Shown: positions 5,185 to 57,184, counted from the first letter of the stretch. The stretch is 64,000 bases of DNA from Escherichia phage EcWhh-1 (MH791409.1), one strand, 5' to 3'. The notes: generated by a model not told the origin, from the letters alone. Numbers and translations: made by a program.

Positions 5185-5214
5185 ATAGTATCACTACCAT
5201 AGCCTTAGGTAAAC
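5185..5214 (-). promoter_or_regulatory. early promoter, conserved family (-35 GTTTAC, -10 TACTAT)
   Basis: Minus-strand GTTTAC-N18-TACTAT followed by the conserved AGCCTTATCAACT leader and RBS. Confidence 0.6.
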
Positions 5215-5216
5215 AC

Positions 5217-5444
5217 TTATTTTTGAATTAAGCCCATATAAAATTTATTGTCTTCTGGGTGCATACCATCGCAATATTCATCAGCCATAAAGCGGGTAAG
5301 GTCTTCAAGAGGACCTTGGACTTCAATTTGCATACTACAGAATTGTGTGTCTTTGATATAAGTCATAGTCAAAGAAGGATAACGATTACGGATAACTTCG
5401 TAAGTGTATTCAAAATCAACGATATCAATATTAACCTTAGCCAT
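5217..5444 (-). CDS. hypothetical protein
   Basis: 75-aa ORF preceded by a conserved early-promoter element at 5473-5501. Confidence 0.5.
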
Positions 5445-5472
5445 TTTATTTTCCTCATTAGTTGATAGGTCT

Positions 5473-5501
5473 ATAGTATCATGCCTATAGACCTTGTAAA
5501 C
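5473..5501 (-). promoter_or_regulatory. early promoter, conserved family
   Basis: GTTTAC-N17-TACTAT; the -10 lies inside the perfect inverted repeat GGTCTATAG-N8-CTATAGACC. Confidence 0.6.
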
Positions 5502-5503
5502 AC

Positions 5504-5764
5504 TTATTTTTGAATTTTATCTAGCCATTTACCAAGTTTAATCATTTCCTTGGTGGCTTTTTCCATACTTCTGAATTTAACCAGTAAAGGTTGGGCATCA
5601 ACACCCATAACTAAGCTGGTTACAAGACTATGTTCACCTACAAGCCATAATGAATACGTTTGGATATCAAGACCGTAATTTCGGTCTTTATGAACTCGTA
5701 CACCCATCACTTCAAATTTCTCACTGGCTTTTTCTACTGCATCCAGGAAATCATCTTTAGTCAT
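5504..5764 (-). CDS. hypothetical protein; start taken at internal Met MTKDDF
   Basis: ORF-track frame 5504..5827; ATG at 5764 abuts the stop of the upstream ORF. Confidence 0.45.
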
Positions 5765-5765
5765 G

Positions 5766-6161
5766 TTAGGCCTTAAAAGTTTTTTGCAAAAGTTCAATAA
5801 TTTGGTCGACGTTCTGTTCAGTGACAATGCAATGGATTTGGGTCACACCGGTCTTAGTAACAGGTTTGTCAACTTCATCTTCGTCATATTCACGGAAGCA
5901 ATAGAACTCATCTTCATGCAATTCAAAATATTCCTCTAGTGTTCCGTCCGAACTAAAAATCTTGCCATTAGCACATTTGATTTTAGTTACAAATTTATCC
6001 CCATCTGTGGTCATTGTATCCTTTACTTCAAACCACCCACCGTTTTCTTGGATAATATCGACCATATCATTATTATTGATAGGGGTGATATTAATAAAAG
6101 CTTTGATACACTCAGGGCGAAGTTCGTATTTTTTACCAATTTTCATTTTTTTAAATTCCAA
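5766..6161 (-). CDS. hypothetical protein, paralogue of 6151..6516
   Basis: 131-aa ORF; shares motifs with the neighbour (EEYFELHEDEFYCF vs DEYFELGEWEFCHF; TQIHCIVTEQN vs TQTIHVQVNHKN). Confidence 0.55.
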   Translation of the reverse strand: MEFKKMKIGKKYELRPECIKAFINITPINNNDMVDIIQENGGWFEVKDTMTTDGDKFVTKIKCANGKIFSSDGTLEEYFELHEDEFYCFREYDEDEVDKPVTKTGVTQIHCIVTEQNVDQIIELLQKTFKA

Positions 6162-6516
6162 AGGTAGCTTTAATCAAGGCAACAACTTCTGCCGCATTTT
6201 TGTGGTTTACCTGTACATGGATAGTTTGGGTATCAACGGCAGGAGCATCGCCATCAACTTCCAGGAAGTGACAGAATTCCCATTCACCGAGTTCAAAGTA
6301 CTCATCAGAATCACCCATACTATTCAGGATGGTGCCATCTTTCATTTCAACTTTTTCAACAAAATAATCACCTTCAATATAACGCATATCCAAGACTTTG
6401 AAGGAATTGCCATGTTGTTCCATCAACCTGACCATGCACGAATTATCATCAGGACTAAAAGCGATGAATTGTTTTTTAGCAGCAGGGTCTAATACGTAAA
6501 ATTTACCAATTTCCAT
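6151..6516 (-). CDS. hypothetical protein, paralogue of 5766..6161
   Basis: 121-aa ORF; tandem duplicate of the downstream gene; RBS GAGGAAA before the ATG. Confidence 0.55.
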   Translation of the reverse strand: MEIGKFYVLDPAAKKQFIAFSPDDNSCMVRLMEQHGNSFKVLDMRYIEGDYFVEKVEMKDGTILNSMGDSDEYFELGEWEFCHFLEVDGDAPAVDTQTIHVQVNHKNAAEVVALIKATFGI

Positions 6517-6545
6517 TTTTATTTCCTCATGTAGTTGATAGGTCT

Positions 6546-6574
6546 ATAGTATCATGTTTAAAGGCATTGTAAAC
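6546..6574 (-). promoter_or_regulatory. early promoter, conserved family
   Basis: GTTTAC-N17-TACTAT-AGACCTATCAACTA upstream of ORF 6151..6516. Confidence 0.6.
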
Positions 6575-6583
6575 CATTAAATG

Positions 6584-6610
6584 CCAAAAAGGGAAGACCG
6601 AAGTCTTCCC
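6584..6610 (-). terminator. rho-independent terminator downstream of gene 32
   Basis: Minus-strand hairpin GGGAAGAC-UUCG-GUCUUCCC followed by a U-run (plus strand 6591-6610 with aaaaa at 6586-6590). Confidence 0.7.
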
Positions 6611-8276: not shown

Positions 8277-8575
8277 AACAAGAAATCCAGGGTATTAGTT
8301 TTTTGCGTTCGTGCCATTGAAGGACGAAGCAAGTTATCATCAATGGCCTCGTTCATAATTTTATCAATAATTCCTGCAGGCAAATAACGAGCAAAGTTAC
8401 CTTCAGGGATGCTGTTCTCTTCCAACCATGTGGTGGCCGCTTCGAGATAGCTACATCCTTCAGCCTCAACAAAGGCCTCAATATCAAGGCCATTCTGTTG
8501 TTTATTTACCAATACATGGACAGGTTCAGAAGCGGTATTAACCGCTCCATCAAAATCATTCAAAGATTGTGTCAT
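8273..8575 (-). CDS. 33: late transcription co-activator gp33
   Basis: 100-aa acidic ORF in the T4 gene 33 position between 59 and dsbA. Confidence 0.85.
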   Translation of the reverse strand: MTQSLNDFDGAVNTASEPVHVLVNKQQNGLDIEAFVEAEGCSYLEAATTWLEENSIPEGNFARYLPAGIIDKIMNEAIDDNLLRPSMARTQKTNTLDFLL

Positions 8576-9783: not shown

Positions 9784-9850
9784 ATGAACCTCTGTCCAAT
9801 TAGTGTAGAAGGTTATTATATCATGGCCCTGGAAGAAGTAAACACTTTGC

Positions 9851-9858
9851 TATAAATA
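9851..9858 (+). promoter_or_regulatory. T4-type late promoter (TATAAATA) for gene 34
   Basis: Exact TATAAATA octamer 33 nt upstream of the gene 34 ATG. Confidence 0.8.
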
Positions 9859-20803: not shown

Positions 20804-20843
20804 AATATTCTCTTCAATTCAGTACGACATTATCTGATAAGGC

Positions 20844-20872
20844 TATAATAACATATCCTTATGGATTGTAAA
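20844..20872 (-). promoter_or_regulatory. early promoter upstream of asiA
   Basis: GTTTAC-N17-TATTAT on the minus strand. Confidence 0.6.
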
Positions 20873-21106
20873 CATGTTCTTCGTTCTTTTTAACATATTC
20901 CTGATACATTTCTTCAATAGGTTCCTGGAACTTAAAATCAGCTCCTAGGAATTCCTCAAAGCACTCCTGCTCACGAGTACGCATACCTGTTACGGTATTC
21001 TCTAAGTTATGACTCATACCCTTTACCCTTATGTTTCTGCTTACGCTTGGACTCTTTAAAATTTTTCTTCTTGTCCTTATGGACCGAAGCCTTATTGAAA
21101 TCGTGC

Positions 21107-22852: not shown

Positions 22853-22886
22853 TTTAATCTCCGATAACCATTTATTTGATAGGTCT

Positions 22887-22915
22887 ATAGTATCATGTTT
22901 AAAGCAGAAGTAAAC
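22887..22915 (-). promoter_or_regulatory. early promoter upstream of motA
   Basis: GTTTAC-N17-TACTAT-AGACCTATCAAATAA. Confidence 0.6.
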
Positions 22916-22954
22916 TTTATTTTGAGCTCTTTTTCAAGAGCTCTAATAAAGTAC

Positions 22955-23182
22955 TTACTTAATGTTCAGATTACGAACTTCGATTTCGTCTTCAGGGGCA
23001 AAATCAAACTGTTTGAATTCTGTGTCACCTTTAAATTTAAAAATCATTGTGAAGAAAGTCAGAACACCGGGTTTTTCTTCACGAACTCCACATATATCAT
23101 ATTCAATACCATCTACAACCAGTTTGTTAGCAGTCAGAGCATTTTTAGCTTTAACGATTTCGTTTTCGATTTTAAATTTCAT
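22955..23182 (-). CDS. hypothetical protein
   Basis: 75-aa ORF flanked by two conserved early-promoter elements. Confidence 0.5.
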   Translation of the reverse strand: MKFKIENEIVKAKNALTANKLVVDGIEYDICGVREEKPGVLTFFTMIFKFKGDTEFKQFDFAPEDEIEVRNLNIK

Positions 23183-23230
23183 TTTTGTATCTCCGGGTTG
23201 TTTGTTTCAGTTCATTTATTTGATAGGTCT

Positions 23231-23259
23231 ATAGTATCATGTTTAAAGCAGATGTAAAC
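23231..23259 (-). promoter_or_regulatory. early promoter upstream of ORF 22955..23182
   Basis: Near-identical copy of the motA promoter. Confidence 0.6.
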
Positions 23260-23278
23260 ACTTTTTTGCACTAAACCC

Positions 23279-23299
23279 AAAAAGGAACCCGAAGGTTCC
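23279..23299 (-). terminator. rho-independent terminator after gene 52 and its trailing peptide gene
   Basis: Minus-strand GGAACC-UUCG-GGUUCC hairpin followed by UUUUUGGG. Confidence 0.7.
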
Positions 23300-23404
23300 T
23301 TACTTTTTAAAGTGGGCCGCTATTAAACCTATAGCTAAGCCTGTTGCCAGGCCTAGGATAACAGCAAAGATACAGAGTAGCAAGAACTCGACTCCAAGGC
23401 TCAT
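23300..23404 (-). CDS. 34-aa hydrophobic peptide (single predicted TM helix)
   Basis: ATG overlaps the gene 52 stop (ATGA); translation MSLGVEFLLLCIFAVILGLATGLAIGLIAAHFKK; below the ORF-track size cut-off. Confidence 0.5.
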   Translation of the reverse strand: MSLGVEFLLLCIFAVILGLATGLAIGLIAAHFKK

Positions 23405-25911: not shown

Positions 25912-25960
25912 ATCAATTTCCTCAGTAGATTAATGTTTTGTTATCCAGTCAACGAGAACC

Positions 25961-25989
25961 ATTATAACATGATTCTCGAGGTTGTAAAC
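25961..25989 (-). promoter_or_regulatory. early promoter upstream of ndd, with dyad symmetry over the -10
   Basis: GTTTAC-N17-TATAAT; the -10 is embedded in CGAGAACCAT-TATAAC-ATGATTCTCG (1 mismatch). Confidence 0.6.
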
Positions 25990-26333
25990 TATTTTTGTAG
26001 CTGTTCTAAAATAAATCCGCTCGTATAAAAGGACGCATTATATACCTTATTCAGTGGGTTCAAAGCGCGTCCATAGGTATCACGTAATTCTTTGATAACA
26101 TTTTCGTAACTCACATAGTAAGCACTACGATAGTCAGGGTCCATGCTCATACGGAATTTGATGAATCGATAAAACCCTGTATCCGGGTCTTGAACGAAAA
26201 CGAAATCCGCGCTTGCCATAGTTTTTGAATCTAACCCAGTAACCAGTTCTTGATTAAAGGCTGCCAATGCCTCTTTAAGACTGAGTTGCTCAAAGAACAT
26301 AACCTTAGCATTACCAAAAAATACTTTAGACAT
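25989..26333 (-). CDS. hypothetical protein
   Basis: 114-aa ORF upstream of ndd. Confidence 0.5.
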   Translation of the reverse strand: MSKVFFGNAKVMFFEQLSLKEALAAFNQELVTGLDSKTMASADFVFVQDPDTGFYRFIKFRMSMDPDYRSAYYVSYENVIKELRDTYGRALNPLNKVYNASFYTSGFILEQLQK

Positions 26334-26614: not shown

Positions 26615-26719
26615 TCATAAAAACTATTGGGAAAATGCTCAATACCATTAACAACACAAACATGTTCCAAATTGCTTTAAGTAAGTTTTTCATAATCATC
26701 TCCATTAGTTGATAGGTCT

Positions 26720-26748
26720 ATAGTATCATGTCTAATGGAGATGTATAC
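26720..26748 (-). promoter_or_regulatory. early promoter variant (-35 GTATAC)
   Basis: GTATAC-N17-TACTAT-AGACCTATCAACTAA upstream of ORF 26348..26614. Confidence 0.5.
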
Positions 26749-26838
26749 TGATTTATGCCAATTTCCACAACAATAAACTAAAACATACGCAAATCACTGG
26801 GATACAGGCTATCCAAATAAGGCACCACATTTTGCTAC

Positions 26839-27099: not shown

Positions 27100-27130
27100 T
27101 TTGTTTTCCTCTCATGTAGTTGATAGGAAG

Positions 27131-27160
27131 ATAGTAACACCATCCATGGTGTATGTAAAC
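27131..27160 (-). promoter_or_regulatory. early promoter, conserved family
   Basis: GTTTAC-N18-TACTAT upstream of ORF 26839..27099. Confidence 0.55.
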
Positions 27161-27174
27161 ACTTATTTTAAAAA

Positions 27175-31934: not shown

Positions 31935-31980
31935 ATTCTCACCTCTTAGAGAATCGTATCACACTTTTAATCTGTTGTAA

Positions 31981-32006
31981 ACCCCGAAAAGGGCCTTGCG
32001 GCCCTT
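31981..32006 (-). terminator. rho-independent terminator downstream of gene 39
   Basis: Minus-strand AAGGGCC-GCAA-GGCCCUU hairpin followed by UUUCGGGGUUU. Confidence 0.6.
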
Positions 32007-34703: not shown

Positions 34704-34775
34704 ACATCCTCCTTTAATTTATGAAGATTATATCATGGCTTTATTGGAGCGTAAACAAAAAAAGGGCCGAAGCCC

Positions 34776-35036
34776 TTATTCGAATCGAATAGTAGAGTTT
34801 TTAAACAGTAATCCTGAGCACACGGTACCCTTAACAGTTTTACCTGTAGGACCTACAGCAATGAATCCTGTACGTTGGAAGTCATCTTCAGAACATCCAA
34901 ACAAGCTATAACCTGTGATTTGGACCTGATCGAACCCGTTTGCATTCAAAACTTTAACAGCATTATCAGCATCAGTACAACCAACCAACGAAACTGCTAG
35001 TACAAGAGCCGCAATAGAACGATTAACATATTTCAT
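34776..35036 (-). CDS. putative small lipoprotein
   Basis: 86-aa ORF with signal peptide and lipobox (LAVSLVGC). Confidence 0.55.
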   Translation of the reverse strand: MKYVNRSIAALVLAVSLVGCTDADNAVKVLNANGFDQVQITGYSLFGCSEDDFQRTGFIAVGPTGKTVKGTVCSGLLFKNSTIRFE

Positions 35037-35869: not shown

Positions 35870-35900
35870 TTTATTTTCCTCTCATTTGTTGATAGGGTAA

Positions 35901-35930
35901 ATAGTATCACTACCCTACCGTATTGTATAC
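35901..35930 (-). promoter_or_regulatory. early promoter variant (-35 GTATAC)
   Basis: GTATAC-N18-TACTAT upstream of ORF 35651..35869. Confidence 0.5.
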
Positions 35931-35943
35931 TATTTTTTAAACT

Positions 35944-36510
35944 TTATGCACGGTGAATGTTAGCATATTCAACAATAAAGCTTTCAGGAACAACCTTAAA
36001 GGTTCCAAGGAACACGATGTTATAGAGCTTAACGCCACCTTCAACCCACTGGTCTGTGATGTAACCAGACATGCTACTGGTTTCGTAAGTACCAAAAGGT
36101 TCGTCAACATATTTGAACGGTTTAGGAGTATTAAAACACACTCCTCGACCTAATTTCCATTTGAAATCAACGCCAACATGGGACTGGTCGATAGTTTCAA
36201 CGTCTTGAGCTACTACGCCACGGATATCATTGCTTTCACATACATACCCATCATGGGATTCAACTTCTTCAACTACAGGAGCGATGTACCCGGTAAATTC
36301 AGTCGATTCCAAGAATTTAGCACGCACATAACCGAATTGAGTTTCAGTCTGGCGATTTTTAGGAATGATACGAACTTTTACTTCATAATTTTCTTCACTG
36401 ACACCTTCTTTAAGTTGGATGCTAACAACTTCAACTAAACTGCCCGCAGCTTTTGAACGAGACTTTTTGGATACACGAACGATACTGCCGATATCGGAAA
36501 TAGTAATCAT
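35944..36510 (-). CDS. hypothetical protein, paralogue of 36584..37132
   Basis: 188-aa ORF; C-terminal block GYITDQWVEGGVKLYNIVFLGTFKVVPESFIVEY matches CGWVTDQWIEDGVELLNVVHAGDFSIVPRSAVVN in the neighbour. Confidence 0.55.
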   Translation of the reverse strand: MITISDIGSIVRVSKKSRSKAAGSLVEVVSIQLKEGVSEENYEVKVRIIPKNRQTETQFGYVRAKFLESTEFTGYIAPVVEEVESHDGYVCESNDIRGVVAQDVETIDQSHVGVDFKWKLGRGVCFNTPKPFKYVDEPFGTYETSSMSGYITDQWVEGGVKLYNIVFLGTFKVVPESFIVEYANIHRA

Positions 36511-36552
36511 AATTTTTCTCTCTTGGTTAAAGGTTTATAATCCATGAGAGCC

Positions 36553-36581
36553 ATTATAACATGGCTCTCGATAAAGTAAAC
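36553..36581 (-). promoter_or_regulatory. early promoter with perfect 9-bp inverted repeat flanking the -10
   Basis: GTTTAC-N17-TATAAT; GAGAGCCAT-TATAAC-ATGGCTCTC palindrome at plus 36546-36569. Confidence 0.6.
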
Positions 36582-36583
36582 TA

Positions 36584-37132
36584 TTAATTCAATACGTTAA
36601 CCACTGCACTACGAGGTACTATGCTAAAATCACCAGCATGTACAACGTTCAGGAGTTCAACACCATCTTCAATCCACTGGTCTGTTACCCAACCACAGAT
36701 AGGATTATCAAAAGGACGACGGATAGCCACAGCAGCACACAACAGGTCGGTAGGGCCTTGTTCTTCAACTTCTTGGAACAGGATGAACTCATCTTCATAA
36801 ACCAGGTTTTTCTCTATTTTGTTATTATCTAACCGGCGACCGTGGATGACGTAAGATTTGTCAAACCACTCACTTTTGGCGAATTCTTCAACAATAAATT
36901 CGCCTTCGCCAAAAACATCAGTCAGAGTTTTATAACCAGAAATCAAGGCCTTAGTTTTAATTTCAGGTTCAACCAGTTTGTAGGTTTTGCCGATTTCGAT
37001 AGTCTGAGTAGTCATAGTGGTTTCCTTAATTTCCAGTGGTTTAACAGGGCATACATAAGTGCTTAAAACATCAAAATCAATCAGTTTAGCTGCCGGATTC
37101 GGGGTGTATTTAGGGTTGTAATTAAATTTCAT
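36584..37132 (-). CDS. hypothetical protein, paralogue of 35944..36510
   Basis: 182-aa ORF; shared C-terminal domain. Confidence 0.55.
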   Translation of the reverse strand: MKFNYNPKYTPNPAAKLIDFDVLSTYVCPVKPLEIKETTMTTQTIEIGKTYKLVEPEIKTKALISGYKTLTDVFGEGEFIVEEFAKSEWFDKSYVIHGRRLDNNKIEKNLVYEDEFILFQEVEEQGPTDLLCAAVAIRRPFDNPICGWVTDQWIEDGVELLNVVHAGDFSIVPRSAVVNVLN

Positions 37133-37638: not shown

Positions 37639-37665
37639 TTTGTTCTCCTCATGTTGATAGGGTAG

Positions 37666-37694
37666 ATAATATCATGTCATGAGGAGAAGTAAAC
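37666..37694 (-). promoter_or_regulatory. early promoter upstream of ORF 37129..37638
   Basis: GTTTAC-N17-TATTAT. Confidence 0.55.
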
Positions 37695-37698
37695 ACTT

Positions 37699-38373
37699 TT
37701 ATCGATTTTTTACACTTAATGGGTCTGGATTCTCAGGAACATCTTCCAGGTTTAAAGCATATCGTTGGGCATATTTCAGCATCAAGATATCCTTAGCACA
37801 GTCATGGATAGAGTCATGGGCTACAAAGCCATTCAATGTTCCGTTAGGCAGAGGGCACATGCTTAATCCACGCGTCAGTGAATAGGCTTCAATGGCCGTG
37901 CGGATATCACGTTGGTTCCAGAATTTAACCGGTTCCAACTTAGTGGTATCGATTTCGTTCTCAGGAACACCTTCAGAACGATAAGCATCGCGAATAAGGT
38001 CCACTAAGATTGGAAAGTCAAAGGACATTCCGCGGCACCACATCTGCGATTTCCATTGGTCCACTTCGTTTTTACGGCAGTATTCCAGGAAATTACCAAT
38101 GCCGATAGAAGTACTCACATCAATTTCGGACGGAGCCAGGTTTTTACGTGCTTCGGGTCCTTGTTCTTTCCACCACTGCAATGTGCTTTTAGAGAACAGA
38201 CGTTTATCGCGTTGAGAAGCCAAATCGAATTTAATACGAAGGCCACGTTGAGTAAGCTCTTCAAACGATTCTACTACCTCTGGATTAGGGTCATAAGCAA
38301 TTACGGCGAGGTCGATAACTGCTGCATTTTGGGTAGTGGCAAAGGTTTCGAAGTCAATAATTATATCTTTCAT
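37699..38373 (-). CDS. dexA: exonuclease A (DnaQ-like 3'-5' exonuclease)
   Basis: 224-aa ORF; N-terminal IIIDFETF motif and C-terminal H..D motif; T4 dexA position next to dda. Confidence 0.85.
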   Translation of the reverse strand: MKDIIIDFETFATTQNAAVIDLAVIAYDPNPEVVESFEELTQRGLRIKFDLASQRDKRLFSKSTLQWWKEQGPEARKNLAPSEIDVSTSIGIGNFLEYCRKNEVDQWKSQMWCRGMSFDFPILVDLIRDAYRSEGVPENEIDTTKLEPVKFWNQRDIRTAIEAYSLTRGLSMCPLPNGTLNGFVAHDSIHDCAKDILMLKYAQRYALNLEDVPENPDPLSVKNR

Positions 38374-40995: not shown

Positions 40996-41035
40996 GATAT
41001 TTTTCTCATCTTACGGACGATTAGTTGATAGGTCT

Positions 41036-41064
41036 ATAGTATCATGTTGCTTGATAAAGTAAAC
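41036..41064 (-). promoter_or_regulatory. early promoter upstream of the srd-position gene
   Basis: GTTTAC-N17-TACTAT-AGACCTATCAACTAA. Confidence 0.6.
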
Positions 41065-41133
41065 ACTTTTTTGCTTTAAATTTTCAACGGTATAATGAAT
41101 CAAGGACTTTGCCTTTCAATTAAACCGGGTGGT

Positions 41134-41748: not shown

Positions 41749-41802
41749 ATTATTCTCCTCAGTTGATAGAAAGATAGTAACATAAGCATCCTTGCCTGTA
41801 AA

Positions 41803-42372
41803 CTAAAAATCTAACATTTTTAAATGAATTGTTTTATACTCGATTTCGTATGGATCCCTTTTGACGGTTTCGATTGCAACAATCTCAAATCGCGATAGAC
41901 TAGAGACCATGAACTCACATTCAGTTTCAACCATATCATAGAGGTCGATACGAGATTCATCTATTTCAAGCTCATCCACATTCCCTGCAAGAACAAGGTC
42001 GATAGCATGATTGTAGTAGTCGAAAATGAACGGTGCATTCCTGAGACTTAAAATGGTTTTGGTTCCATACTCCCATGCCCCTGCGAACTGACGAGCCTGA
42101 GAGTATTGTGTACTAAAAGAAGTAACTCGACCAGGAGACCATTGACACCCTACTGAAAGGAGCTCTAATTGCTCAAGTTCTCTGGTGGTAATCCCACGAT
42201 ACAACTCTACTGGAACCGCTGAAGTAACATGCTTGCGAACCAGTTTGTCGAGGTCGTAATGGAAGTTAGGGTCTTTTTTGGCGTCCAGACATTTCTCTAA
42301 CAACGCTTGTTCAGATTTTGAAAATTTAGAATTGATTCGGTCTTGATAAAGACATTTTTGTTCGATGTTCAT
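41803..42372 (-). CDS. mono-ADP-ribosyltransferase, ModA/ModB-like paralogue
   Basis: 189-aa ORF with LYRG, TSFSTQ and ECEFMV motifs; tandem with 41134..41748. Confidence 0.7.
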   Translation of the reverse strand: MNIEQKCLYQDRINSKFSKSEQALLEKCLDAKKDPNFHYDLDKLVRKHVTSAVPVELYRGITTRELEQLELLSVGCQWSPGRVTSFSTQYSQARQFAGAWEYGTKTILSLRNAPFIFDYYNHAIDLVLAGNVDELEIDESRIDLYDMVETECEFMVSSLSRFEIVAIETVKRDPYEIEYKTIHLKMLDF

Positions 42373-42424
42373 ATGACCTCCAGTGATTTAGAGGTCATTA
42401 TAACATGAAGGGAGGGGGTGTAAA

Positions 42425-42679
42425 CTACTTAAACACACCAAGTGGGACGCCAAACACTGCAATGTCGGCAGCCATGCCTAATGAGGATTGGGTATATGAA
42501 GTATAGGAGCTTTTTGATTCATAAGAGCTTTTTGTTTCTGGCTTCTCAGCTTCAATCTTAGGAGCTTTTGCCTGAATATTTTTTTGCTCGGTTTCCTTAC
42601 GAGCTTGTTTACGGTCGATATCCAACGCCGATGTAGGTATATTAGTTAGCCAATTCATTATTTTACCCAAGGGGCCCAA
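42425..42679 (-). CDS. hypothetical protein
   Basis: 84-aa ORF. Confidence 0.45.
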   Translation of the reverse strand: MGPLGKIMNWLTNIPTSALDIDRKQARKETEQKNIQAKAPKIEAEKPETKSSYESKSSYTSYTQSSLGMAADIAVFGVPLGVFK

Positions 42680-44023: not shown

Positions 44024-44253
44024 AGGAAACCTCGTTTAAATTCAACTTTATCAATATCATCAGTCTCGTGACGGATTTCGGCGTTAAATTCGATAGAACC
44101 GTCTTCATGCATCATAAATGAATGGACAATAACTTCGGTATACCAAGGAGTATAGAAATACTTTTTCAATACGTGATTAGCGATAATTTCATCCAAAGTT
44201 TTATTTGGTTTAATCCAACGATTTAACATAGTGTTCTCCTCTATAAGATACAT
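44020..44253 (-). CDS. hypothetical protein
   Basis: 77-aa ORF preceded by a promoter-like element. Confidence 0.45.
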   Translation of the reverse strand: MYLIEENTMLNRWIKPNKTLDEIIANHVLKKYFYTPWYTEVIVHSFMMHEDGSIEFNAEIRHETDDIDKVEFKRGFL

Positions 44254-44293
44254 CTATCTTAACATGGCCTACTCGTAAAGTAAACTACTAAAA

Positions 44294-44317
44294 CGAAAAA
44301 AGGAACCCGAAGGTTCC
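44294..44317 (-). terminator. rho-independent terminator after soc
   Basis: Minus-strand GGAACC-UUCG-GGUUCC hairpin followed by a U-run. Confidence 0.7.
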
Positions 44318-44323
44318 TTATAA

Positions 44324-47772: not shown

Positions 47773-47800
47773 TTTTAACTCCTCGTTAGTTGATAGGTCC

Positions 47801-47830
47801 ATAGTATCATTACCATAGACCATTGTAAAC
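47801..47830 (-). promoter_or_regulatory. early promoter upstream of the Spackle-like gene
   Basis: GTTTAC-N18-TACTAT-GGACCTATCAACTAACGAGGAG. Confidence 0.6.
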
Positions 47831-47865
47831 ACTTATTTTACTTTAGCGTAATCTAAAGTTACTAA

Positions 47866-48129: not shown

Positions 48130-48130
48130 T

Positions 48131-48478: not shown

Positions 48479-48479
48479 T

Positions 48480-48809
48480 TTAGATTTCCTCACAGAAGGC
48501 CCATTCAGCATGATAAACCGTGGCGCCTTTAGTATCATTTAAACAAACCACATCTACCGGAGCAATTACACGATAAAGACGAGGTTCTCCTCCCACTGAA
48601 CGAGCAGCTCGTCCAGCATAAATCTTAGCCAAACCGATATCTTCAGTAAAGAATACACGATTCAGGTTTTTCTTACGACCAGTTTCAGACAGAACTCCTG
48701 TTTCCTCAGGAGGACAAAGCATATTACCAATATTAGCCACACTACAACTTCCGTGATAATACACTTTATATTCTGCTTTACAGTCGATGGTTTTCATTTT
48801 GTTCTCCAA
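48480..48809 (-). CDS. hypothetical protein with N-terminal Y-H-G-S motif
   Basis: 109-aa ORF between gene 41 and dmd; preceded by a conserved early-promoter element. Confidence 0.5.
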   Translation of the reverse strand: MENKMKTIDCKAEYKVYYHGSCSVANIGNMLCPPEETGVLSETGRKKNLNRVFFTEDIGLAKIYAGRAARSVGGEPRLYRVIAPVDVVCLNDTKGATVYHAEWAFCEEI

Positions 48810-48821
48810 GTTGATAGGTCT

Positions 48822-48850
48822 ATAGTATCATGCCTATAGGAGATGTAAAC
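48822..48850 (-). promoter_or_regulatory. early promoter upstream of ORF 48480..48809
   Basis: GTTTAC-N17-TACTAT-AGACCTATCAACTT. Confidence 0.6.
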
Positions 48851-48856
48851 CCTTAA

Positions 48857-48879
48857 AACAAAAAAGGAGCCGAAGCTCC
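48857..48879 (-). terminator. rho-independent terminator after gene 41
   Basis: Minus-strand GGAGC-UUCG-GCUCC hairpin followed by UUUUUUG. Confidence 0.65.
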
Positions 48880-50319
48880 TTAAAATTTGATAGATGCTGC
48901 TAAATCGTCTAAATCACTTCTATTAACACGCGACTGGCGATTGACCTCTGCTTGGCGGTTCATTTCACCTGTAGCCTCACGAACAGTGTTCACTGGACCT
49001 GGGTTAAAATCGTCTTCAACTTCATACCAACGCTGGTTTCCTTTCTTAACACCAATCTTAAATTTGTTGTAGTAGCTCTTATCACCATAACGAGATTTAA
49101 GCTGCTTAACCATCTGCATACCCATCTGAGCAAACTCTTCTGTCTCGACCACACCTAACATGAAGTCTGCAGTATGTGCAATACCAAAGGATTCAGCGAT
49201 ATCAGCCATATCGATTTCGGCGGCAACGTTCGCACCACGAGTAGTCTGGGCTGCAGTCCACAACAATAATTTCTTCTCTACTGCAAGTCCACGTAGTTCT
49301 TCGGCAACCATCTTAATCAATCCATAACTGTTTTCAGAGAAAACTTTCGTACGGGATGAAGCACAGATAGCCAAGTAGTCGACGATAACGACCTGTGGGA
49401 CAAAGTTTTGTTTGAGCTTGTATTCGTTTAATAATGCACGGAATGTATCGGCATTAGCACCACCAGTAGGGTACTGTTTAATCTTTAAACGACCTAAAGT
49501 AGCAGTTGAACGCCACTTATCCATCTTAGCTTTATATTCAGGCCATGAGACGTGACCATCATCGATATCATCCAGTGATACATCCAGAAGGTTAGCATCG
49601 ATACGCTTAGCACATACTTCCTCTGCCATCTCCATAGAGATATAAAGAACATCATAACCGGATTGAAGGTAATCAGCAGCCAATGAACACAGTCCAAGAG
49701 ACTTACCTACGTTTGTTCCTGCCAACAATACGTTTTCAGTACCAAACTCTGCTCCACCCTTAGTAATCTTGTTCAGAATATTAAGACGGAATGGAACCTT
49801 ACGTGCTTTATCGGAATAACTTTTGAATCGTTCTTCATAGTCATCCATCCAGTCATGACCTAATTCGGAATCGAAACAAATCGATAATGCATCACGCATG
49901 ATATCTGGAATAGCACCAATACCTGGAAGTTTTCTATTTTGTTGCTCAACCGGAAGGTCGGCATTAGTTTGGATTTCAATGATTTTTGAAGTTGCATTAT
50001 ACATCGCTGCTTTCTGAACGTATTTCTCCGTTTCTTTAACCAACCATTCTTGGTCTTCGGGTCCAGCATTCAGTGAGCTTAAAAGCTCTTTAGCTCCTTG
50101 ATGTTCAACTTCTGAAAGCGTACTGTTATCTAATGCAATGCTCAATGCGTTCTTAGAAGGCACTGCATTATATTCATTGACGTGTTTTTTAATTTCTTTG
50201 AAAAGGGTCTTTGCAGGACCCTGGTCAAAATATGAATCATTCATATAAGGCCAGACCTTAGTGAAATAATCACTATTGCCTAGCAGTTGAGCCAAAATAG
50301 TTTCTACCACTTCCACCAC
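48880..50319 (-). CDS. 41: replicative DNA helicase gp41 (DnaB-like)
   Basis: 479-aa ORF with Walker A (GTNVGKS) and RecA-like core; T4 order uvsX-40-41. Confidence 0.94.
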   Translation of the reverse strand: MVEVVETILAQLLGNSDYFTKVWPYMNDSYFDQGPAKTLFKEIKKHVNEYNAVPSKNALSIALDNSTLSEVEHQGAKELLSSLNAGPEDQEWLVKETEKYVQKAAMYNATSKIIEIQTNADLPVEQQNRKLPGIGAIPDIMRDALSICFDSELGHDWMDDYEERFKSYSDKARKVPFRLNILNKITKGGAEFGTENVLLAGTNVGKSLGLCSLAADYLQSGYDVLYISMEMAEEVCAKRIDANLLDVSLDDIDDGHVSWPEYKAKMDKWRSTATLGRLKIKQYPTGGANADTFRALLNEYKLKQNFVPQVVIVDYLAICASSRTKVFSENSYGLIKMVAEELRGLAVEKKLLLWTAAQTTRGANVAAEIDMADIAESFGIAHTADFMLGVVETEEFAQMGMQMVKQLKSRYGDKSYYNKFKIGVKKGNQRWYEVEDDFNPGPVNTVREATGEMNRQAEVNRQSRVNRSDLDDLAASIKF

Positions 50320-54526: not shown

Positions 54527-56184
54527 TGTTTGTGGAGTTCAGTAGAACCTGTAGGTTTATATTTTACACCAGTTTCCTGGTCAAGCAAAACCCACTTATC
54601 AGGACAACGAGTAATAATTTGAGCCGTGATAGGGTCACGAACTTCATCGACAAATTCACCAGTAATAAGCTTACGCTTATGAGGATGCCGCTTCAGCAGC
54701 ACACTCAGTTGATACAAACCGTTATAATAAGCACCCAGAGCTTTCAGAGGGTTATTCTTAAAGTAACCTGCCAGCGCCATCCAAATAACAGCAATCCAGA
54801 GCTTGTGCTTAAATGTGCACATAGGAATATCGTCTAAAGGCATAACCTTTTCGATATCAACGAATACACGAGTTCCGTTACGAGTTAATCCACCCCATAG
54901 AGGGTCTGAGTTAAATTTGTCATAGCCATCGATAGAATAAAGCACCTTAGCTTCATCATAAATCGCAGGGCCTTTAGAACTATTACCGAAATAACCACGT
55001 GGGTCGATGATTTTAATATCACCTTCGTCCGACAGCATAATATTACTGTAGTGCGGGTCGCCATGAATAAGTTGGTACGGTTCTTTATGTTCAGACAGAA
55101 TTTCTAGTGCATGGCGGAGAAGTTTTTCGGGGTCGCCTACTTTGAAATCGTTAACATAGGTAATGCCCTGTGGAGCAAAGCCTTCAATCAATCCGGCAAT
55201 AGAAGCATTACGAATAAGGACCTTGTCCAACACTTCTTTCTTAACATCGGAATACCATTGCTCATCGGACGGGTTATCGATAGTTCCACCGAATGAACGT
55301 AATGCACTAATGACCTTATAAACCATGAGGACTTTAGTTTCTTTGGACATAAACCGGTAGGCATCTGCCATGGTACGACCAAAGATACGTTCCATTTTAA
55401 TGAATTCGCCTGGAGAAAAGTCTACAATGCTAGGAACGAATTCAGAATCAATAGAATTATACCAATTGATTTCTTTAGATTGAATTTCTTTACCTAATTC
55501 GTTAGTTGGTACTTTAATAGCCAGATTCTCGGTGAACTCTAATTTATTAAATTCACGGTTAATTTCAGAATCTTCATGGGCCTTGGCAAGTTTCAATTTG
55601 TCACCGACATCAACTACAAAATCCAGTTTACGTTCAGTCAAATAGACCATTGAATCCAGGTTATCAGCAAGGTCTTCGCCATAATTAGAACGGTCGAAAC
55701 CTGTCCAATTGGCTACCTGATACAAACCAACTACACCGCCACCGGTACCAATTTCACGTAAGTACGGTTCTTCAAATGTAAAGCGACAGTCAGTTCCATA
55801 GGTATAACAATAGTCGTTACCCCATTCAACTTTATGACCGATAGGAATGATGTCACACCAGTTAAACAGGACATTATGGCCAATGATATCTTCGGCAATG
55901 CAATCGATAGCATGAGCTGAACCATTAGCAACATCAACGTTACGAATAGTGAATTTAGGCTTATCACCAGTAATCATGTTAATGGATTTAATATAGCCTT
56001 TAACGAGGTCGTTAAATTTGCTGTGAATAACCAGAATAATTTCATCTGATTGGTTACTATACAAATCATACAAATGTTTTAATACCGTATGTTGTTTGTA
56101 GTTAACCAATACCTTTGGGATTTCGTTAGTAATTGGATACAACCGTGAGCCAAGACCTGCGCCTAAAATAACAACCTTTTTCAT
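54511..56184 (-). CDS. bifunctional protein: N-terminal sugar-1-phosphate nucleotidyltransferase domain fused to C-terminal APH/choline-kinase-like kinase domain
   Basis: N-terminus MKKVVILGAGLGSRLYPITNEIPKVLV matches the RmlA/GlmU G-x-G-x-R-L-Y-P-I-T...PK signature; C-terminal region has Brenner motif LIHGDPHYSNIML plus IIDPRGY. ORF-track start is 56214; the ATG at 56184 has a GAGGAA RBS. Confidence 0.75.
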   Translation of the reverse strand: MKKVVILGAGLGSRLYPITNEIPKVLVNYKQHTVLKHLYDLYSNQSDEIILVIHSKFNDLVKGYIKSINMITGDKPKFTIRNVDVANGSAHAIDCIAEDIIGHNVLFNWCDIIPIGHKVEWGNDYCYTYGTDCRFTFEEPYLREIGTGGGVVGLYQVANWTGFDRSNYGEDLADNLDSMVYLTERKLDFVVDVGDKLKLAKAHEDSEINREFNKLEFTENLAIKVPTNELGKEIQSKEINWYNSIDSEFVPSIVDFSPGEFIKMERIFGRTMADAYRFMSKETKVLMVYKVISALRSFGGTIDNPSDEQWYSDVKKEVLDKVLIRNASIAGLIEGFAPQGITYVNDFKVGDPEKLLRHALEILSEHKEPYQLIHGDPHYSNIMLSDEGDIKIIDPRGYFGNSSKGPAIYDEAKVLYSIDGYDKFNSDPLWGGLTRNGTRVFVDIEKVMPLDDIPMCTFKHKLWIAVIWMALAGYFKNNPLKALGAYYNGLYQLSVLLKRHPHKRKLITGEFVDEVRDPITAQIITRCPDKWVLLDQETGVKYKPTGSTELHKQWKKI

Positions 56185-56244
56185 TATCTGTTCCTCAAGT
56201 GAATGTAGGTACATTATACACTATTTTTAATAAATTTCTATTGC

Positions 56245-56745
56245 TTAAATCTTATCTTTACCGTATTCCATGCACTGTTCTACTGCAGCAGGCACTTTGG
56301 TCTTAAGCTTGTTGATTTGTTTCTTATAATCACGAGCCTTATCGAAGCTCTCGGTTTCGAGCATTTCGTAATAACGAGCCTCGTGGACAGAAATCTGTAG
56401 ATTGATATGGTTTACACACATGGCATACAGTTTCTGCTTTTTGTACAAATCATCTTGGCGCTTCATTTCTGCCTGGTGTTTGGCTAGTACCGCTTCACGC
56501 TTAGACTCTTGTTCACGTTGGAATTCGATTTCCCTTTGAGCATATTTTGCACAGTTATTACCACATTGATTATTAGCTCGGGTGTACACAAGTCCAGAAC
56601 CGGCACGGAATTTCATTTCGCCGTCGAATTGTTTCTGTTCAGCTGCGATACGAGCTTTACCAACTTCATCAGCAGAAACTGCATCACCGTATTGGACTGC
56701 GCAACCTGATAGGAGCATACTCATTGCGATAATTAACTTTTTCAT
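56245..56745 (-). CDS. putative lipoprotein with coiled-coil region
   Basis: 166-aa ORF with signal peptide and lipobox (LLSGC). Confidence 0.55.
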   Translation of the reverse strand: MKKLIIAMSMLLSGCAVQYGDAVSADEVGKARIAAEQKQFDGEMKFRAGSGLVYTRANNQCGNNCAKYAQREIEFQREQESKREAVLAKHQAEMKRQDDLYKKQKLYAMCVNHINLQISVHEARYYEMLETESFDKARDYKKQINKLKTKVPAAVEQCMEYGKDKI

Positions 56746-56752
56746 AATATCC

Positions 56753-56890
56753 TCAATTAAAACAGTTATACTTAATTTGTGCTATAAGAATAATCCATCC
56801 CATGATTAATGTTGGAATCATTGGAGGAATTGCCACTGCCCAATAAACGGTAAAGGCAGCCATTATAAGAAATAAAATAATTATCTTCAT
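56753..56890 (-). CDS. 45-aa hydrophobic peptide
   Basis: Translation MKIIILFLIMAAFTVYWAVAIPPMIPTLIMGWIILIAQIKYNCFN; ATG overlaps the imm stop. Confidence 0.45.
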   Translation of the reverse strand: MKIIILFLIMAAFTVYWAVAIPPMIPTLIMGWIILIAQIKYNCFN

Positions 56891-57123
56891 TGTTTAACGA
56901 TAATGATTTGTGCGTTTGATTTATGTTCAGCGACTATAGCCCAGATTAAAGCCACTACCCAACCAATCATCGTCCACCCTAACAGGAGATTAAGGAAGAA
57001 GATTCCGACATTGCTACGAGTGCCTCGCAGAAGGGCCAGAATCCATGGTAAAAAGTAACCAATGAACATAATAACCAGAGAACCGAATCCTAAAACACCA
57101 GCACTAACGATTAAAGCTTCCAT
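56887..57123 (-). CDS. imm: superinfection immunity protein Imm
   Basis: Start at internal Met MEALIVSAG; two TM segments and a YFLPWILAL motif typical of the Imm family; T4 position next to gene 43. Confidence 0.75.
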   Translation of the reverse strand: MEALIVSAGVLGFGSLVIMFIGYFLPWILALLRGTRSNVGIFFLNLLLGWTMIGWVVALIWAIVAEHKSNAQIIIVKQ

Positions 57124-57154
57124 TGTAATTTCCTCTAAGTAGTTGATAGGAAGG

Positions 57155-57184
57155 ATACTACCACGTTCCTTGTGGTATGTAAAC
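57155..57184 (-). promoter_or_regulatory. early promoter upstream of imm
   Basis: GTTTAC-N18-TAGTAT followed by the conserved CCTTCCTATCAACTA leader. Confidence 0.55.

Follow-up and report, generated by a model that had tools for sequence, protein, structure and literature searches.

Probable early promoter copies in the EcWhh-1 window

The window analysed here, a stretch of 64,000 nucleotides from Escherichia phage EcWhh-1 (MH791409.1), belongs to a mosaic, T4-like Dhakavirus (JS98/IME281-like Tevenvirinae), and carries a recurrent promoter module upstream of minus-strand genes (Table 1). The -35 hexamer of this module is GTTTAC in 19 of the 22 copies and GTATAC in two (1.3-2.4 bits per position) and is followed by A or T, the spacer measures 17 or 18 bp in every copy, and the extended -10 has the consensus cATGaTAcTAT, with 1.7-2.4 bits at the TG. 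Directly 5' of the -35, around -40 to -44, lies an A-rich UP-like tract with the consensus aaaTAagt (0.3-0.9 bits), which is less conserved than the core elements and follows the same pattern as in T4 promoters. The discriminator and start-site motif reads CCT-A-TCAAC, with the inferred start at the A located 7 nt after the -10, and the leader AGACCTATCAACTA is exact in four copies and present with at most one mismatch in eight. A Shine-Dalgarno sequence (SD), strong and often GGAG, and an ATG-initiated ORF follow all 22 copies, the distance from inferred start site to ATG being 12-43 nt.

Table 1. Promoter copies and associated features in the window (positions counted from its first nucleotide)
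Feature	Position	Strand	-35	-10	Start	ATG	Remarks
Early promoter copy before frd.1 (DUF5417)	5159..5228	-	5214-5209	TACTAT 5190-5185	5178	5158	Embedded hairpin TAAGGCTATGGTA/TACTATAGCCTTA; -35 begins 2 nt after upstream stop TAA
Early promoter copy before frd.3	5445..5515	-	5501	5478-5473	5466	5444	Exact AGACCTATCAACTA; hairpin AGGTCTATAG/CTATAGACCT
Early promoter copy before first frd.2 paralogue	6517..6588	-	6574		6539	6516	Exact leader; no embedded hairpin
Terminator-like hairpin GGGAAGACTTCGGTCTTCCC + T-run	6591..6610	-					Immediately 5' of copy 6574; follows gene 32
Early promoter copy before rnh (RNase H)	9784..9857	-	9843	TATAAT	9808	9783	Divergent region, opposite gene 34
Early promoter copy before asiA	20804..20887	-	20873	TATTAT	20838	20803	
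Early promoter copy before motA	22853..22929	-	22915		22880	22852	Preceded by stem-loop AGAGCTCTTGAAAAAGAGCTC
75-aa ORF	22955..23182	-					Between copies 23259 and 22915
Early promoter copy before 75-aa ORF	23183..23273	-	23259		23224	23182	
Intrinsic-terminator-like hairpin AAGGAACCTTCGGGTTCCTT + T-run	23282..23301	-					Directly upstream of copy 23259; recurs at 44291-44320
Early promoter copy before ndd	25912..26003	-	25989	TATAAT	25954	25911	Upstream stop TAG overlaps G of -35; -10 enclosed by hairpin CGAGAATCAT/ATGGTTCTCG
Early promoter copy before 36-aa membrane-like ORF	26694..26762	-	GTATAC 26748		26713	26693	Spacer TCTCCATTAG complementary to CTAATGGAGA, which includes the SD
Early promoter copy before 86-aa ORF downstream of denB	27100..27174	-	27160		27124	27099	Hairpin confined to the spacer itself (ACACCATGGATGGTGT)
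Marginal copy before 107-aa ORF	31935..31996	-	31982	TACGAT			Score 10.6
Early promoter copy before inserted HNH endonuclease gene	34704..34777	-	34756	TATAAT		34703	Adjoining terminator hairpin 34762-34777
Early promoter copy before cef	35870..35944	-	GTATAC 35930				Hairpin GGTAGGGTA/TACCCTATC
Early promoter copy before motB	36511..36595	-	36581	TATAAT		36510	Hairpin GAGAGCCAT/ATGGCTCTC, loop 6 nt
Early promoter copy before motB.2	37639..37708	-	37694			37638	Spacer TTCTCCTCATG pairs with CATGAGGAGAA (= SD)
Early promoter copy before srd	40996..41078	-	41064			40995	Exact leader
Early promoter copy before modA	41749..41817	-	41803			41748	-35 overlaps modB stop TAG
Early promoter copy before modB	42373..42439	-	42425	TATAAT		42372	GACCTC at -6..-1 complementary to SD GGAGGTC
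Early promoter copy before mrh.2	44230..44320	-	44285	TAAGAT		44229	Terminator hairpin at 44291-44320
Early promoter copy before sp (spackle)	47773..47844	-	47830			47772	Hairpin GGTCTATGGTA/TACTATGGACC, two G·U pairs
Early promoter copy downstream of gene 41	48798..48881	-	48850			48797	Terminator hairpin AAGGAGCTTCGGCTCCTT at 48864-48881
Early promoter copy before imm	57124..57198	-	57184	TAGTAT		57123	Leader displaced 1 nt; gene 43 stop 2 nt before -35

The sequence-only reading of this DNA had described at least 16 near-identical early promoters between 5185 and 57184, several of them identical over more than 25 bp, and had proposed a weight-matrix scan as a check; the observation was confirmed. 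The pattern GTTTAC-N15-20-TAYWAT has 17 matches in the whole window, exclusively on the minus strand (the first at 5185-5214, the last at 48822-48850), against 0.65 +/- 0.74 in shuffled sequences (maximum 3). A weight matrix of two blocks (UP/-35 and TGn/-10, with the leader left out) returned 23 hits on the minus strand of the window and 0 on the plus strand; one, at 22331, was discounted as lying inside motA with a poor -10, leaving 22 usable copies. Those at 57184 (-10 TAGTAT) and at 26748 and 35930 (-35 GTATAC) were recovered by leader or weight-matrix search, and copy 31982 is marginal, since its matrix score of 10.6 compares with a best shuffled score of 11.8. Strict matches lie at the positions implied by the proposed extent, whose far end is set by copy 57184. 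The strand bias is also observed in 1.13 Mb of related phage DNA, with 257 sense and 4 antisense hits. The leader motif alone, allowing up to three mismatches, was found 15 times versus 6.6 expected, which is weakly above chance, so the significance stems from the whole module. Exact runs of at least 25 nt are common to 10 copy pairs, involving 7 copies; the longest, of 40 nt, is shared by copies 23259 and 22915, and the repeat families D1-D3 and D6 consist of such promoter-copy runs.

Correspondence with T4 early promoters

The early promoters of T4 carry GTTTAC at -36..-31, an A-rich upstream tract, a 17-18 bp spacer and a TGn-extended -10 (PMC1524935; PMC2988021), and these promoters (Pe) are known as the 'uber' UP/-35/TGn/-10 class (Liebig and Ruger; Wilkens and Ruger; Hinton 2010, PMC2988021; Nolan 2006, PMC1524935). 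The earlier assignment of the module to this sigma70-dependent class appears sound, as all sequence features of the published class are present. Run on T4, the window-derived matrix yields about 30 sites, all of them on the early strand, and the inferred start of one coincides with 'Pe133295' of the T4 record. At least 12 window copies precede orthologues of T4 genes carrying such a promoter, the T4 counterparts being those of motA, asiA, modB, srd, motB, motB.2, cef, sp, mrh.2, frd.1, frd.3 and imm/imm.1. T4 promoters also share with the window copies TGn plus TAnnnT, the start region CTATCAAC, the early-gene strand and the gene positions. The conserved leader is likewise T4-wide rather than particular to EcWhh-1: T4 has TACTAT-acaaCTATCAACTAC, and its denV promoter carries the exact AGACCTATCAACTA and is identical to window copies over TGATACTATAGACCTATCAACTAC. 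On the other hand, the discriminator is ACAACT in most T4 copies and AGACCT in the EcWhh-1 consensus, and the 18-bp spacer dominates in T4 whereas 17 bp is commoner among the predicted EcWhh-1 promoters.

A different identity, as MotA-dependent middle promoters or as chance sigma70-like matches, is extremely improbable. Copies 22915 and 23259 do have the heptamer TGCTTTA in their spacers, but it lies 7 nt from the -10, whereas the MotA box, (a/t)(a/t)(a/t)TGCTTtA, is located 11-13 bp upstream of the -10 in promoters that lack a -35 (PMC1524935), an element that all copies keep; chance, for its part, would account for just 0.65 matches. As T4-type early promoters, the copies would each be recognised by host sigma70 RNA polymerase in its unmodified form as soon as infection begins, with no need for phage protein synthesis. 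Promoter strength and timing in EcWhh-1 are predicted from these sequences and from T4 orthology, and the copies with a weak -10 or -35 (31982, 44285, 57184 and 35930) may be poor promoters.

Cassette exchange and the origin of near-identity

The promoter repeats had also been proposed as recombination substrates, a suggestion that is upheld in part. One clean cassette swap is seen between copies 23259 and 22915, where relatives carry two other ORFs or none between the same cassettes. Moreover, JS98-like relatives lack a 707-bp segment whose end, at 34751, falls within the -35 of copy 34756, a 233-bp segment missing from five relatives begins exactly at 42425, the -35 of the modB copy, and a further insertion border lies at 47841, in the sp copy. 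Nevertheless, gene starts that carry a promoter copy show no excess of breakpoints (8/19, against 21/56 other gene starts; p=0.79). As for the stp region, placed by the same reading beside promoter copies, its duplication is real, but no copy adjoins it, the nearest (25989) being about 520 bp upstream.

These observations bear on the idea that near-identity is mainly historical, with cassettes copied or exchanged by PeSL-type shuffling or gene conversion and serving as portable homology for gene swapping, the promoter role being secondary. The 40-nt exact run in the two copies that flank the swapped 75-aa ORF, the insertion borders at -35 elements, the composite of terminator and promoter repeated at 23259 and 44285 (repeat D9) and the mini-circles between PeSLs demonstrated in RB49/phi1 all speak for it. 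However, the absence of breakpoint enrichment speaks against it, each copy has a spacer of its own, which covaries with that copy's leader, and the consensus, including the start-site motif, is kept in T4 and in 91 diverged promoters, so that constraint alone explains much of the similarity. A mainly historical origin is possible but rather doubtful, and near-identity reflects constraint on an information-rich promoter class shared with T4, plus some inter-cassette copying.

Predicted hairpins embedded in the promoters

In many copies, the promoter spacer is complementary to the copy's own -10/start region or own SD. Own pairing averages -10.2 kcal/mol in the window copies, against -7.45 +/- 0.55 for mismatched combinations; the corresponding values are -12.6 and -7.8 kcal/mol in T4 promoters (z=-10.9) and -12.3 and -7.6 kcal/mol in a set of 91 non-redundant promoters (z=-18), with composition controls for the pairing energy at -6.8 and -7.4. 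Stems of at least 7 bp are found in 44 of the 91 promoters versus 14 expected, and are missing from about half. The pairing covaries: at fixed register the covariation score is 0.232, compared with 0.167 +/- 0.010 when shuffled and 0.07-0.12 when slid. Orthologous promoters have either different stems or G·T-compatible single changes, as seen for motB, whose orthologues show G·T-compatible changes or a wholly different stem (GGGACC/GGTCCC in T4), and for modB, whose T4 promoter has the covarying pair AGCTTCT/GGAGGCT.

The strands are also unequal. Within the 91-promoter set, internal G·T and A·C mismatches on the sense strand stand at 29:5 (controls 7.8:7.2), an excess that points to read-through RNA; strand-specific mutation bias could inflate it, but a ratio of 6:1 seems too large for bias. 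The same asymmetry would not be selected by a function in duplex DNA, such as cruciforms or palindromes bound by a dimeric regulator to shut off early promoters. Such a role would suit repeats centred on the -10 and the still unexplained shut-off of T4 early promoters, yet it is very unlikely, because stems that differ and covary between copies leave no common operator. In about half of the promoters of this class the 5' arm lies in the untranscribed spacer, so that the hairpin would be possible only in RNA arriving from an upstream promoter. For the motB.2 copy, computed folds give -19.4 kcal/mol for the read-through RNA and 0 for its own transcript.

Promoters preceded by a terminator tend not to contain an embedded hairpin (p=0.0008), and such hairpins are commoner where the upstream stop codon lies against the -35 (69% vs 26%, p=0.0001). 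In the window, a terminator-like hairpin directly precedes 7 copies, and about 10 carry an embedded hairpin, inside the promoter or over it. This mutual exclusivity and the location after the upstream stop codon would fit attenuators or terminators of upstream transcription, as proposed for the phi1/RB49 PeSLs, rather than translational or stability elements; in that system, stem-loops sit between -35 and -10 or over the -10, and one of them is reported to have reduced lacZ expression downstream to the same degree as a strong terminator (Arbiol 2010, PMC2839356). Intrinsic (Rho-independent) terminators were rejected, since none of 31 hairpins has a U-tract (5 or more T among the 8 nt that follow the stem) and the stems average just 41% G+C; hence these are not classical terminators. 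Additionally, 11 of the 44 stems cover the SD and have 16-28 nt loops, a geometry typical of ribosome-binding-site masking rather than termination. An attenuator role for the stem-loops as a whole is accordingly judged unlikely.

Each copy is very probably a T4-type early promoter (Pe) cassette, and for about half of the class a hairpin layer is predicted that forms only in read-through RNA. If the SD lies within the 3' arm, as in motB.2, the 36-aa ORF at 26693 and modB, read-through RNA would be translationally masked, while the copy's own transcript would stay open. The other hairpins (25 of the 44 do not touch the SD) probably serve the upstream gene as its intercistronic 3' hairpin, acting in attenuation or in protection from 3'-exonucleases; tight gene packing may have brought them into the promoter. 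These effects at the RNA level, like transcription and its timing, are predictions.

Relation to known stem-loop systems

Hairpins that sequester the ribosome-binding site and enclose an internal promoter are known for T4 e, soc, 49 and I-TevI (McPheeters 1986; Gott 1988; reviewed PMC3014915). There, the 5' arm precedes the start site of the proximal promoter and the SD falls within the 3' arm, so that masking affects the long transcripts and leaves those from the proximal promoter open, an arrangement also predicted for EcWhh-1. This geometry is present in copies 37694, 26748 and 42425, in contrast to the other window hairpins, and likewise in T4 denV, motB.2, upstream of ndd.5 and elsewhere. 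Unlike the known internal promoters, which are late (or middle) and delay expression, the internal promoter in EcWhh-1 is of the early class, and only about a quarter of early-promoter hairpins reach the SD, with a predicted effect on translation.

The PeSL (promoter-early stem-loop) cassettes of phi1/RB49, T4/PST and KVP40/nt-1 (Arbiol 2010, PMC2839356; Comeau 2014, PMC4122927) are the other close parallel. They too are repeated composites of stem-loop, early promoter, SD and ATG, with stem-loops upstream of, within or over the promoter and G-T pairs included, and the ORF exchange at the 23259/22915 locus resembles theirs, although breakpoints in EcWhh-1 show no statistical enrichment at cassettes. 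For T4/PST, the published figure legend puts the stem-loops upstream of the promoter, whereas many of those found here in EcWhh-1 and T4 span from the spacer to the start site or SD. The module is an ordinary element of an already published kind (T4 Pe; PeSL cassettes), and, as a further difference from the PeSL reports, the present analysis puts numbers on the strand asymmetry, on the covariation and on the trade-off between embedded hairpins and upstream terminators.

Genomic context of the window

The window is a mosaic, JS98-like T4-type coliphage sequence, because it is 100% identical to vB_EcoM_IME281 (Dhakavirus, Tevenvirinae) by megablast at 20000-28000 but only 96.8% identical to it at 40000-58000 (UP19, 98.4%; JS98, 96.6%), and because probes show indels between the two. 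This weaker match over 40-58 kb, a stretch closer to UP19, and the indels rule out IME281 coordinates as a stand-in for those of the window. The orientation is the reverse complement of the usual map, with the gene order nrdA ... frd, 32, rnh, a plus-strand late tail-fibre block (34-38 plus t), then asiA, motA, 52, ndd, denB, rIIB, rIIA, 39, motB, dexA, dda, srd, and finally modA/B, mrh, 56, 61, sp, 41, uvsX, 43, regA, 62, 44 and 45; the early and middle genes occupy the minus strand. The G+C content is about 39%, and neither Rfam matches nor tRNA or tmRNA genes were found over the whole window. A direct repeat of 68 nt (72% identical, 120-nt spacing; 11316-11503, plus strand) lies within gene 34, the proximal tail fibre gene, probably because gp34 contains a recurring structural motif.

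A family of T4-type early promoters

The minus strand of the window holds all 17 matches to the motif GTTTAC-N15-20-TAYWAT, where shuffled sequences give 0.65 +/- 0.74, and the aligned copies share the module aaaTAagt-GTTTAC-(17/18)-cATGa-TAcTAT-agaCCTATCAACTA-...-GAGG-...-ATG. Searching with the leader added copies whose -35 (GTATAC; 26748, 35930) or -10 (TAGTAT; 57184) departs from the motif. The position weight matrix scan proposed in the sequence-only reading was run with a two-block matrix that excluded the leader, and returned 23 hits on the minus strand and none on the plus strand. The hit at 22331 is discounted, as it lies inside motA and has a poor -10, and that at 31982 is marginal; each of the 22 remaining copies is followed by an ORF with a Shine-Dalgarno (SD) sequence, 12-43 nt separating the inferred start from the ATG. 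The recurring module of roughly 55 bp in at least 16 copies is thus borne out (17 strict matches, 22 usable copies), as is the identity of several copies over more than 25 bp, with exact runs of at least 25 nt common to ten pairs and a longest run of 40 nt. The repeat finder recovered the family independently (repeat families D1-D3 and D6), and the exact 14-mer AGACCTATCAACTA occurs 4 times in the window, or 8 times with at most one mismatch. TGCTTTA, the MotA box core, is present in the spacers at 22887-22915 and 23231-23259, where a MotA-dependent middle promoter is ruled out by spacing, since 7 nt, not 11-13 nt, separate the core from the -10.

T4 early promoters (Pe) carry GTTTAC at -36..-31, an A-rich UP-like tract at -40..-44 and an extended -10, with C preferred at -3..-1 in some relatives, and have been predicted genome-wide for RB69, RB49, 44RR, RB43 and Aeh1 (Nolan 2006, PMC1524935); they were described as "uber" UP/-35/TGn/-10 promoters with further consensus regions (Hinton 2010, PMC2988021). 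Scanning about 150 kb of T4 with the window-derived matrix gave 32 hits, on the early strand only, and the inferred start of one, 7 nt past the -10, falls at 133295, the position labelled "Pe133295" in the T4 record (the T4 'Pe' names in PMC6024815 follow map units other than the coordinates used here). The T4 sites precede motA, asiA, modB, srd, motB, motB.2, cef, sp, mrh.2, frd.1, frd.3, imm.1 and dmd, and window copies stand at the same places. The family is strand-specific and highly non-random, and agrees with T4 early promoters in every sequence feature and in gene positions, which supports its earlier assignment to the sigma70 early class of T4.

The conserved leader claimed earlier is present in the copies but is not a local feature. 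T4 promoters mostly read TACTAT-ACAACTATCAACTAC, and the denV promoter, TACTAT-AGACCTATCAACTAC, is the same as the window consensus; conservation of CCTATC (-3..+3) amounts to 0.4-0.9 bits per position in a set of 91 non-redundant promoters drawn from about 25 phages. Because T4 promoters carry the leader and CCTATC is conserved in the 91, the leader is the discriminator and first transcribed bases of the promoter class, superfamily-wide, and no separate element of the EcWhh-1 genome. Applied to related phage DNA (1.13 Mb), the matrix gave 257 sense and 4 antisense hits. The window set consists of textbook T4-type early promoters, unannotated, in a JS98-like phage, which is not surprising, the class being long known for T4 and also described as promoter-early stem-loop (PeSL) cassettes.

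Copy-specific pairing between spacer and leader

The spacer between -35 and -10 pairs with the downstream region of its own copy (-10, start and SD) more stably than with that of another copy (deranged pairing). The energies for the window copies are -10.18 versus -7.45 +/- 0.55 kcal/mol, with none of 7387 derangements as low; for T4 they are -12.58 versus -7.76 +/- 0.44 kcal/mol (z=-10.9), and for the 91 promoters, less than 80% identical to each other, -12.28 versus -7.55 +/- 0.26 kcal/mol (z=-18). Stems of at least 7 Watson-Crick pairs occur in 44/91, with 14 expected. Local base composition is ruled out as the cause of this excess, because shuffling or reversing the own downstream sequence gives only -6.75 and -7.43, respectively.

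Internal transition mismatches, counted on the sense strand in a strand-symmetric stem search, comprise 29 G·T and 5 A·C, against 7.8 and 7.2 in deranged pairs, and the sense fold is more stable than the antisense one in 57 promoters and less so in 32 (Wilcoxon p=0.0008). In a fixed-register helix applied to all 91 sequences (3' arm from -8, 6-nt loop), covariation reaches 0.232, against 0.167 +/- 0.010 in shuffles (0/500 reach 0.232) and 0.07-0.12 in slid registers. Orthologous genes carry different stems: motB.2 has TTCTCCTCATG / CATGAGGAGAA in the window, TTCCTCGGTTAGTTGTGG / ACCATAGCTACTGAGGAT in T4 and TTCTCCTCTGGTT / AACCAGAGGAGAA in another lineage, and motB has GAGAGCC / GGCTCTC versus GGGACC / GGTCCC in T4, while single stem changes in close relatives are G·T-compatible (GAGGGCC, GAGAGCT, GGCTCTT, GGTCCT).

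The complementarity is thus copy-specific, covarying and RNA-strand-biased. Covariation and the excess of G·T over A·C rule out a palindrome or operator acting as DNA, and the pairing excess, covariation, G·T bias and differing orthologous stems together argue for a hairpin selected on the sense single strand, of which RNA is the simplest reading. Since the 5' arm lies upstream of the start site, only read-through transcripts, which enter the cassette from an upstream promoter, can form the hairpin.

Hairpins, stem groups and stp copies (copies are named by the window coordinate of the -35 start; groups refer to the 44 stems)
Feature	Position	Strand	Description
Hairpin arms, copy 5501	5501		AGGTCTATAG / CTATAGACCT
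Hairpin arms, copy 5214	5214		TAAGGCTATGGTA / TACTATAGCCTTA
Hairpin arms, copy 36581	36581		GAGAGCCAT / ATGGCTCTC
Hairpin arms, copy 26748	26748		TCTCCATTAG / CTAATGGAGA
Hairpin arms, copy 37694	37694		TTCTCCTCATG / CATGAGGAGAA
Group A, 25/44 stems	3' arm -12/-7 to about +7		closes a 4-9 nt loop with TGn and part of the -10
Group B, 11/44 stems	3' arm +4..+20		3' arm covers the SD
Group C, 8/44 stems			intermediate
stp, intact	25382-25462	minus	26 aa
stp-like second copy	about 25090-25150	minus	5'-truncated; ~295 bp downstream of intact stp

Geometry and surroundings of the hairpins

Group B is represented in the window by motB.2 (copy 37694), a 36-aa ORF (26748) and modB (42425, with the 5' arm in the discriminator), whose read-through folds reach -19.4, -19.9 and -18.7 kcal/mol, respectively, with the SD paired, and whose own transcripts, beginning at the inferred start, fold at 0 to -0.9 kcal/mol. 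No T-run comes after any of the 31 stems in groups A and C, so they are no classical terminators, and the reading of embedded hairpins as intrinsic terminators is ruled out by this lack of U-tracts.

Embedded hairpins show an anticorrelation with terminator-like hairpins that immediately precede the promoter, the mean own-pairing energy being -8.2 where such a hairpin is present (n=20) and -13.4 where it is not (n=71; p=0.0008, Fisher p=0.02). The stop codon of the upstream ORF lies at most 12 nt from the -35 or inside the promoter in 48/86 promoters, and embedded hairpins are found in 69% of these versus 26% of the others (p=0.0001). In 28/86 non-redundant promoters (T4 loci and 60 IMG/VR loci, L003-L065) the stop has a fixed position within the cassette, as TAA-gt-GTTTAC (12) or TA-GTTTAC (16), upstream stops often being a TAG that overlaps the G of GTTTAC. 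The picture is of an intercistronic hairpin that sits before the promoter or, in tightly packed genes, inside it. GGAG, the RegB target motif, is present in 51/91 leaders.

Gene exchange at promoter cassettes

In T4-like phages, PeSLs have been described as recurring units that combine a stem-loop, an early promoter and an SD, and are reported to flank indels and to recombine into mini-circles (PMC2839356, PMC4122927). The earlier suggestion that the repeats are recombination substrates finds support at individual sites only. The interval between 52 and motA (22853-23404, loci L046-L053) is a swap site, with three unrelated small ORFs or none in Dhakavirus genomes: the window and IME281 have terminator, Pe(23259), a 75-aa ORF, stem-loop, Pe(22915) and motA; in JS98 and one other phage these two cassettes enclose a different ORF, in a third phage a further one, and two phages carry only one cassette, with no ORF. 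At one locus (L049), motA is fused to the leader that, in the window, belongs to the 75-aa ORF.

Borders coincide with some other copies. A 233-bp segment (42425-42657) missing in five of six close relatives has its downstream border exactly at the first base of the modB promoter -35 (42425), the end of a 707-bp HNH endonuclease insertion falls inside a -35 at 34751, and a 100-bp segment without match in relatives adjoins copy 47830. The 233-bp segment encodes the larger part of an ORF (42425-42679, at most 84 aa) with a TAG stop that overlaps the G of GTTTAC. The HNH gene (225 aa, 34026-34751) is equipped with an early promoter copy of its own, is flanked by 39.1 and gene 39, whose start it overlaps, and is missing in JS98 and four other relatives (707-bp gap). 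The tandem frd.2 paralogues follow copy 6574, as the sequence-only reading had it; they span 5766-6161 (131 aa) and 6151-6516 (121 aa), with an 11-nt overlap, and one relative lacks the first (gap 5769-6150) and another the second (gap 6151-6501).

No overall enrichment accompanies these cases: among six close relatives, 8/19 promoter-bearing and 21/56 promoter-less gene starts coincide with breakpoints (p=0.79), these being taken from blast gaps by listing window segments without match, a crude method that counts divergence gaps too. The cassettes can act as exchange points, yet they are not preferred over other gene boundaries in the data set examined. The window resembles the PeSL systems in the exchange of ORFs between two cassettes at one locus and differs in that breakpoints are not enriched; one gene-swap locus without general hotspots in this data set tempers the PeSL shuffling model for Dhakavirus.

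The stp duplication had also been placed next to a promoter copy, but no copy adjoins it. This tandem duplication (25072-25467, minus strand; repeat D4) has a 295-bp period and 101-nt arms that are 78% identical, a small, ac-like hydrophobic ORF comes after each stp copy, and one repeat unit is missing in two relatives (gaps 25166-25371 and 25174-25366). The second stp-like copy presumably resembles T4 Stp more than the intact copy does.

Consequences for annotation

The promoter set serves annotation, the prediction of immediate-early genes and the correction of start codons. The ORF behind copy 37694 (37129-37638) encodes 169 aa with a strong SD, T4 motB.2 having 166 aa, and the IME281 RefSeq record shows only a 98-aa 'MotB.2' there; the annotated gp008 begins at an upstream in-frame ATG (26705), which lies within the leader, rather than at the ATG behind the SD (26693). 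Such start codons could be corrected with the promoter map. A 34-aa hydrophobic ORF (MSLGVEFLLLCIFAVILGLATGLAIGLIAAHFKK; 23300-23404, minus strand) has an ATGA overlap with the gene 52 stop, ends just before the terminator at 23282-23301 and occupies the position of T4 motA.1; no CDS is annotated at this position in the IME281 RefSeq record (gap 8224 to 8443).

Proposed working and significance

Immediately after infection, sigma70 holoenzyme would initiate at the A of CCT-A-TCAAC, and the short unstructured leader with its strong SD would allow immediate translation, while RNA arriving from upstream promoters would fold on read-through. In group B, the fold would mask the SD, and translation would then be limited to own early transcripts or be coupled to translation upstream. 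The hairpins of groups A and C would probably attenuate incoming transcription; alternatively, once the leader has been cleaved, they may shield the upstream cistron from 3' exonucleases.

SD masking in long transcripts is established for T4 e, soc, 49 and I-TevI, where late promoters lie within the masking hairpins (PMC3014915), whereas group B in the window involves early promoters; the 2010 T4 reviews, including PMC3014915, describe RBS-masking hairpins for late-promoter genes only and leave early promoters unmentioned. The phi1/RB49 stem-loops, which lie between -35 and -10 or over the -10 and contain G-T pairs, were proposed to attenuate transcription (Arbiol 2010, PMC2839356), and those of T4/PST lie upstream of the promoter according to a 2014 figure legend (Comeau 2014, PMC4122927). 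No earlier account was found of the spacer-leader covariation in T-even-type promoters, the RNA-strand bias or the terminator trade-off in the T4 promoter, PeSL and T4 review papers compared, and these features, as quantified above, represent a modest extension of what is known.

It is possible, though we hold it only tentatively, that throughout the T4 superfamily, T4 included, about half of the early promoters are enclosed by RNA hairpins specific to each gene, with the untranscribed spacer as 5' arm, so that each such gene would have two mRNA forms, an open promoter-proximal one and a folded read-through one in which the SD is masked or the hairpin stands just after the upstream stop. This reading would go beyond the stem-loop positions of RB49/phi1 PeSLs and extend the e/soc/49/I-TevI principle from late to early promoters. 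The complementarity is statistically very strong, RNA-strand-specific, present in T4 itself and traded off with upstream terminators; it provides design rules for engineering T4-like genomes or reusing their promoters, and leads to a testable proposal for how packed early genes tell their own from read-through transcripts. If true, hairpins with two mRNA forms would be a general, previously unquantified layer linking promoter choice to translation or stability.
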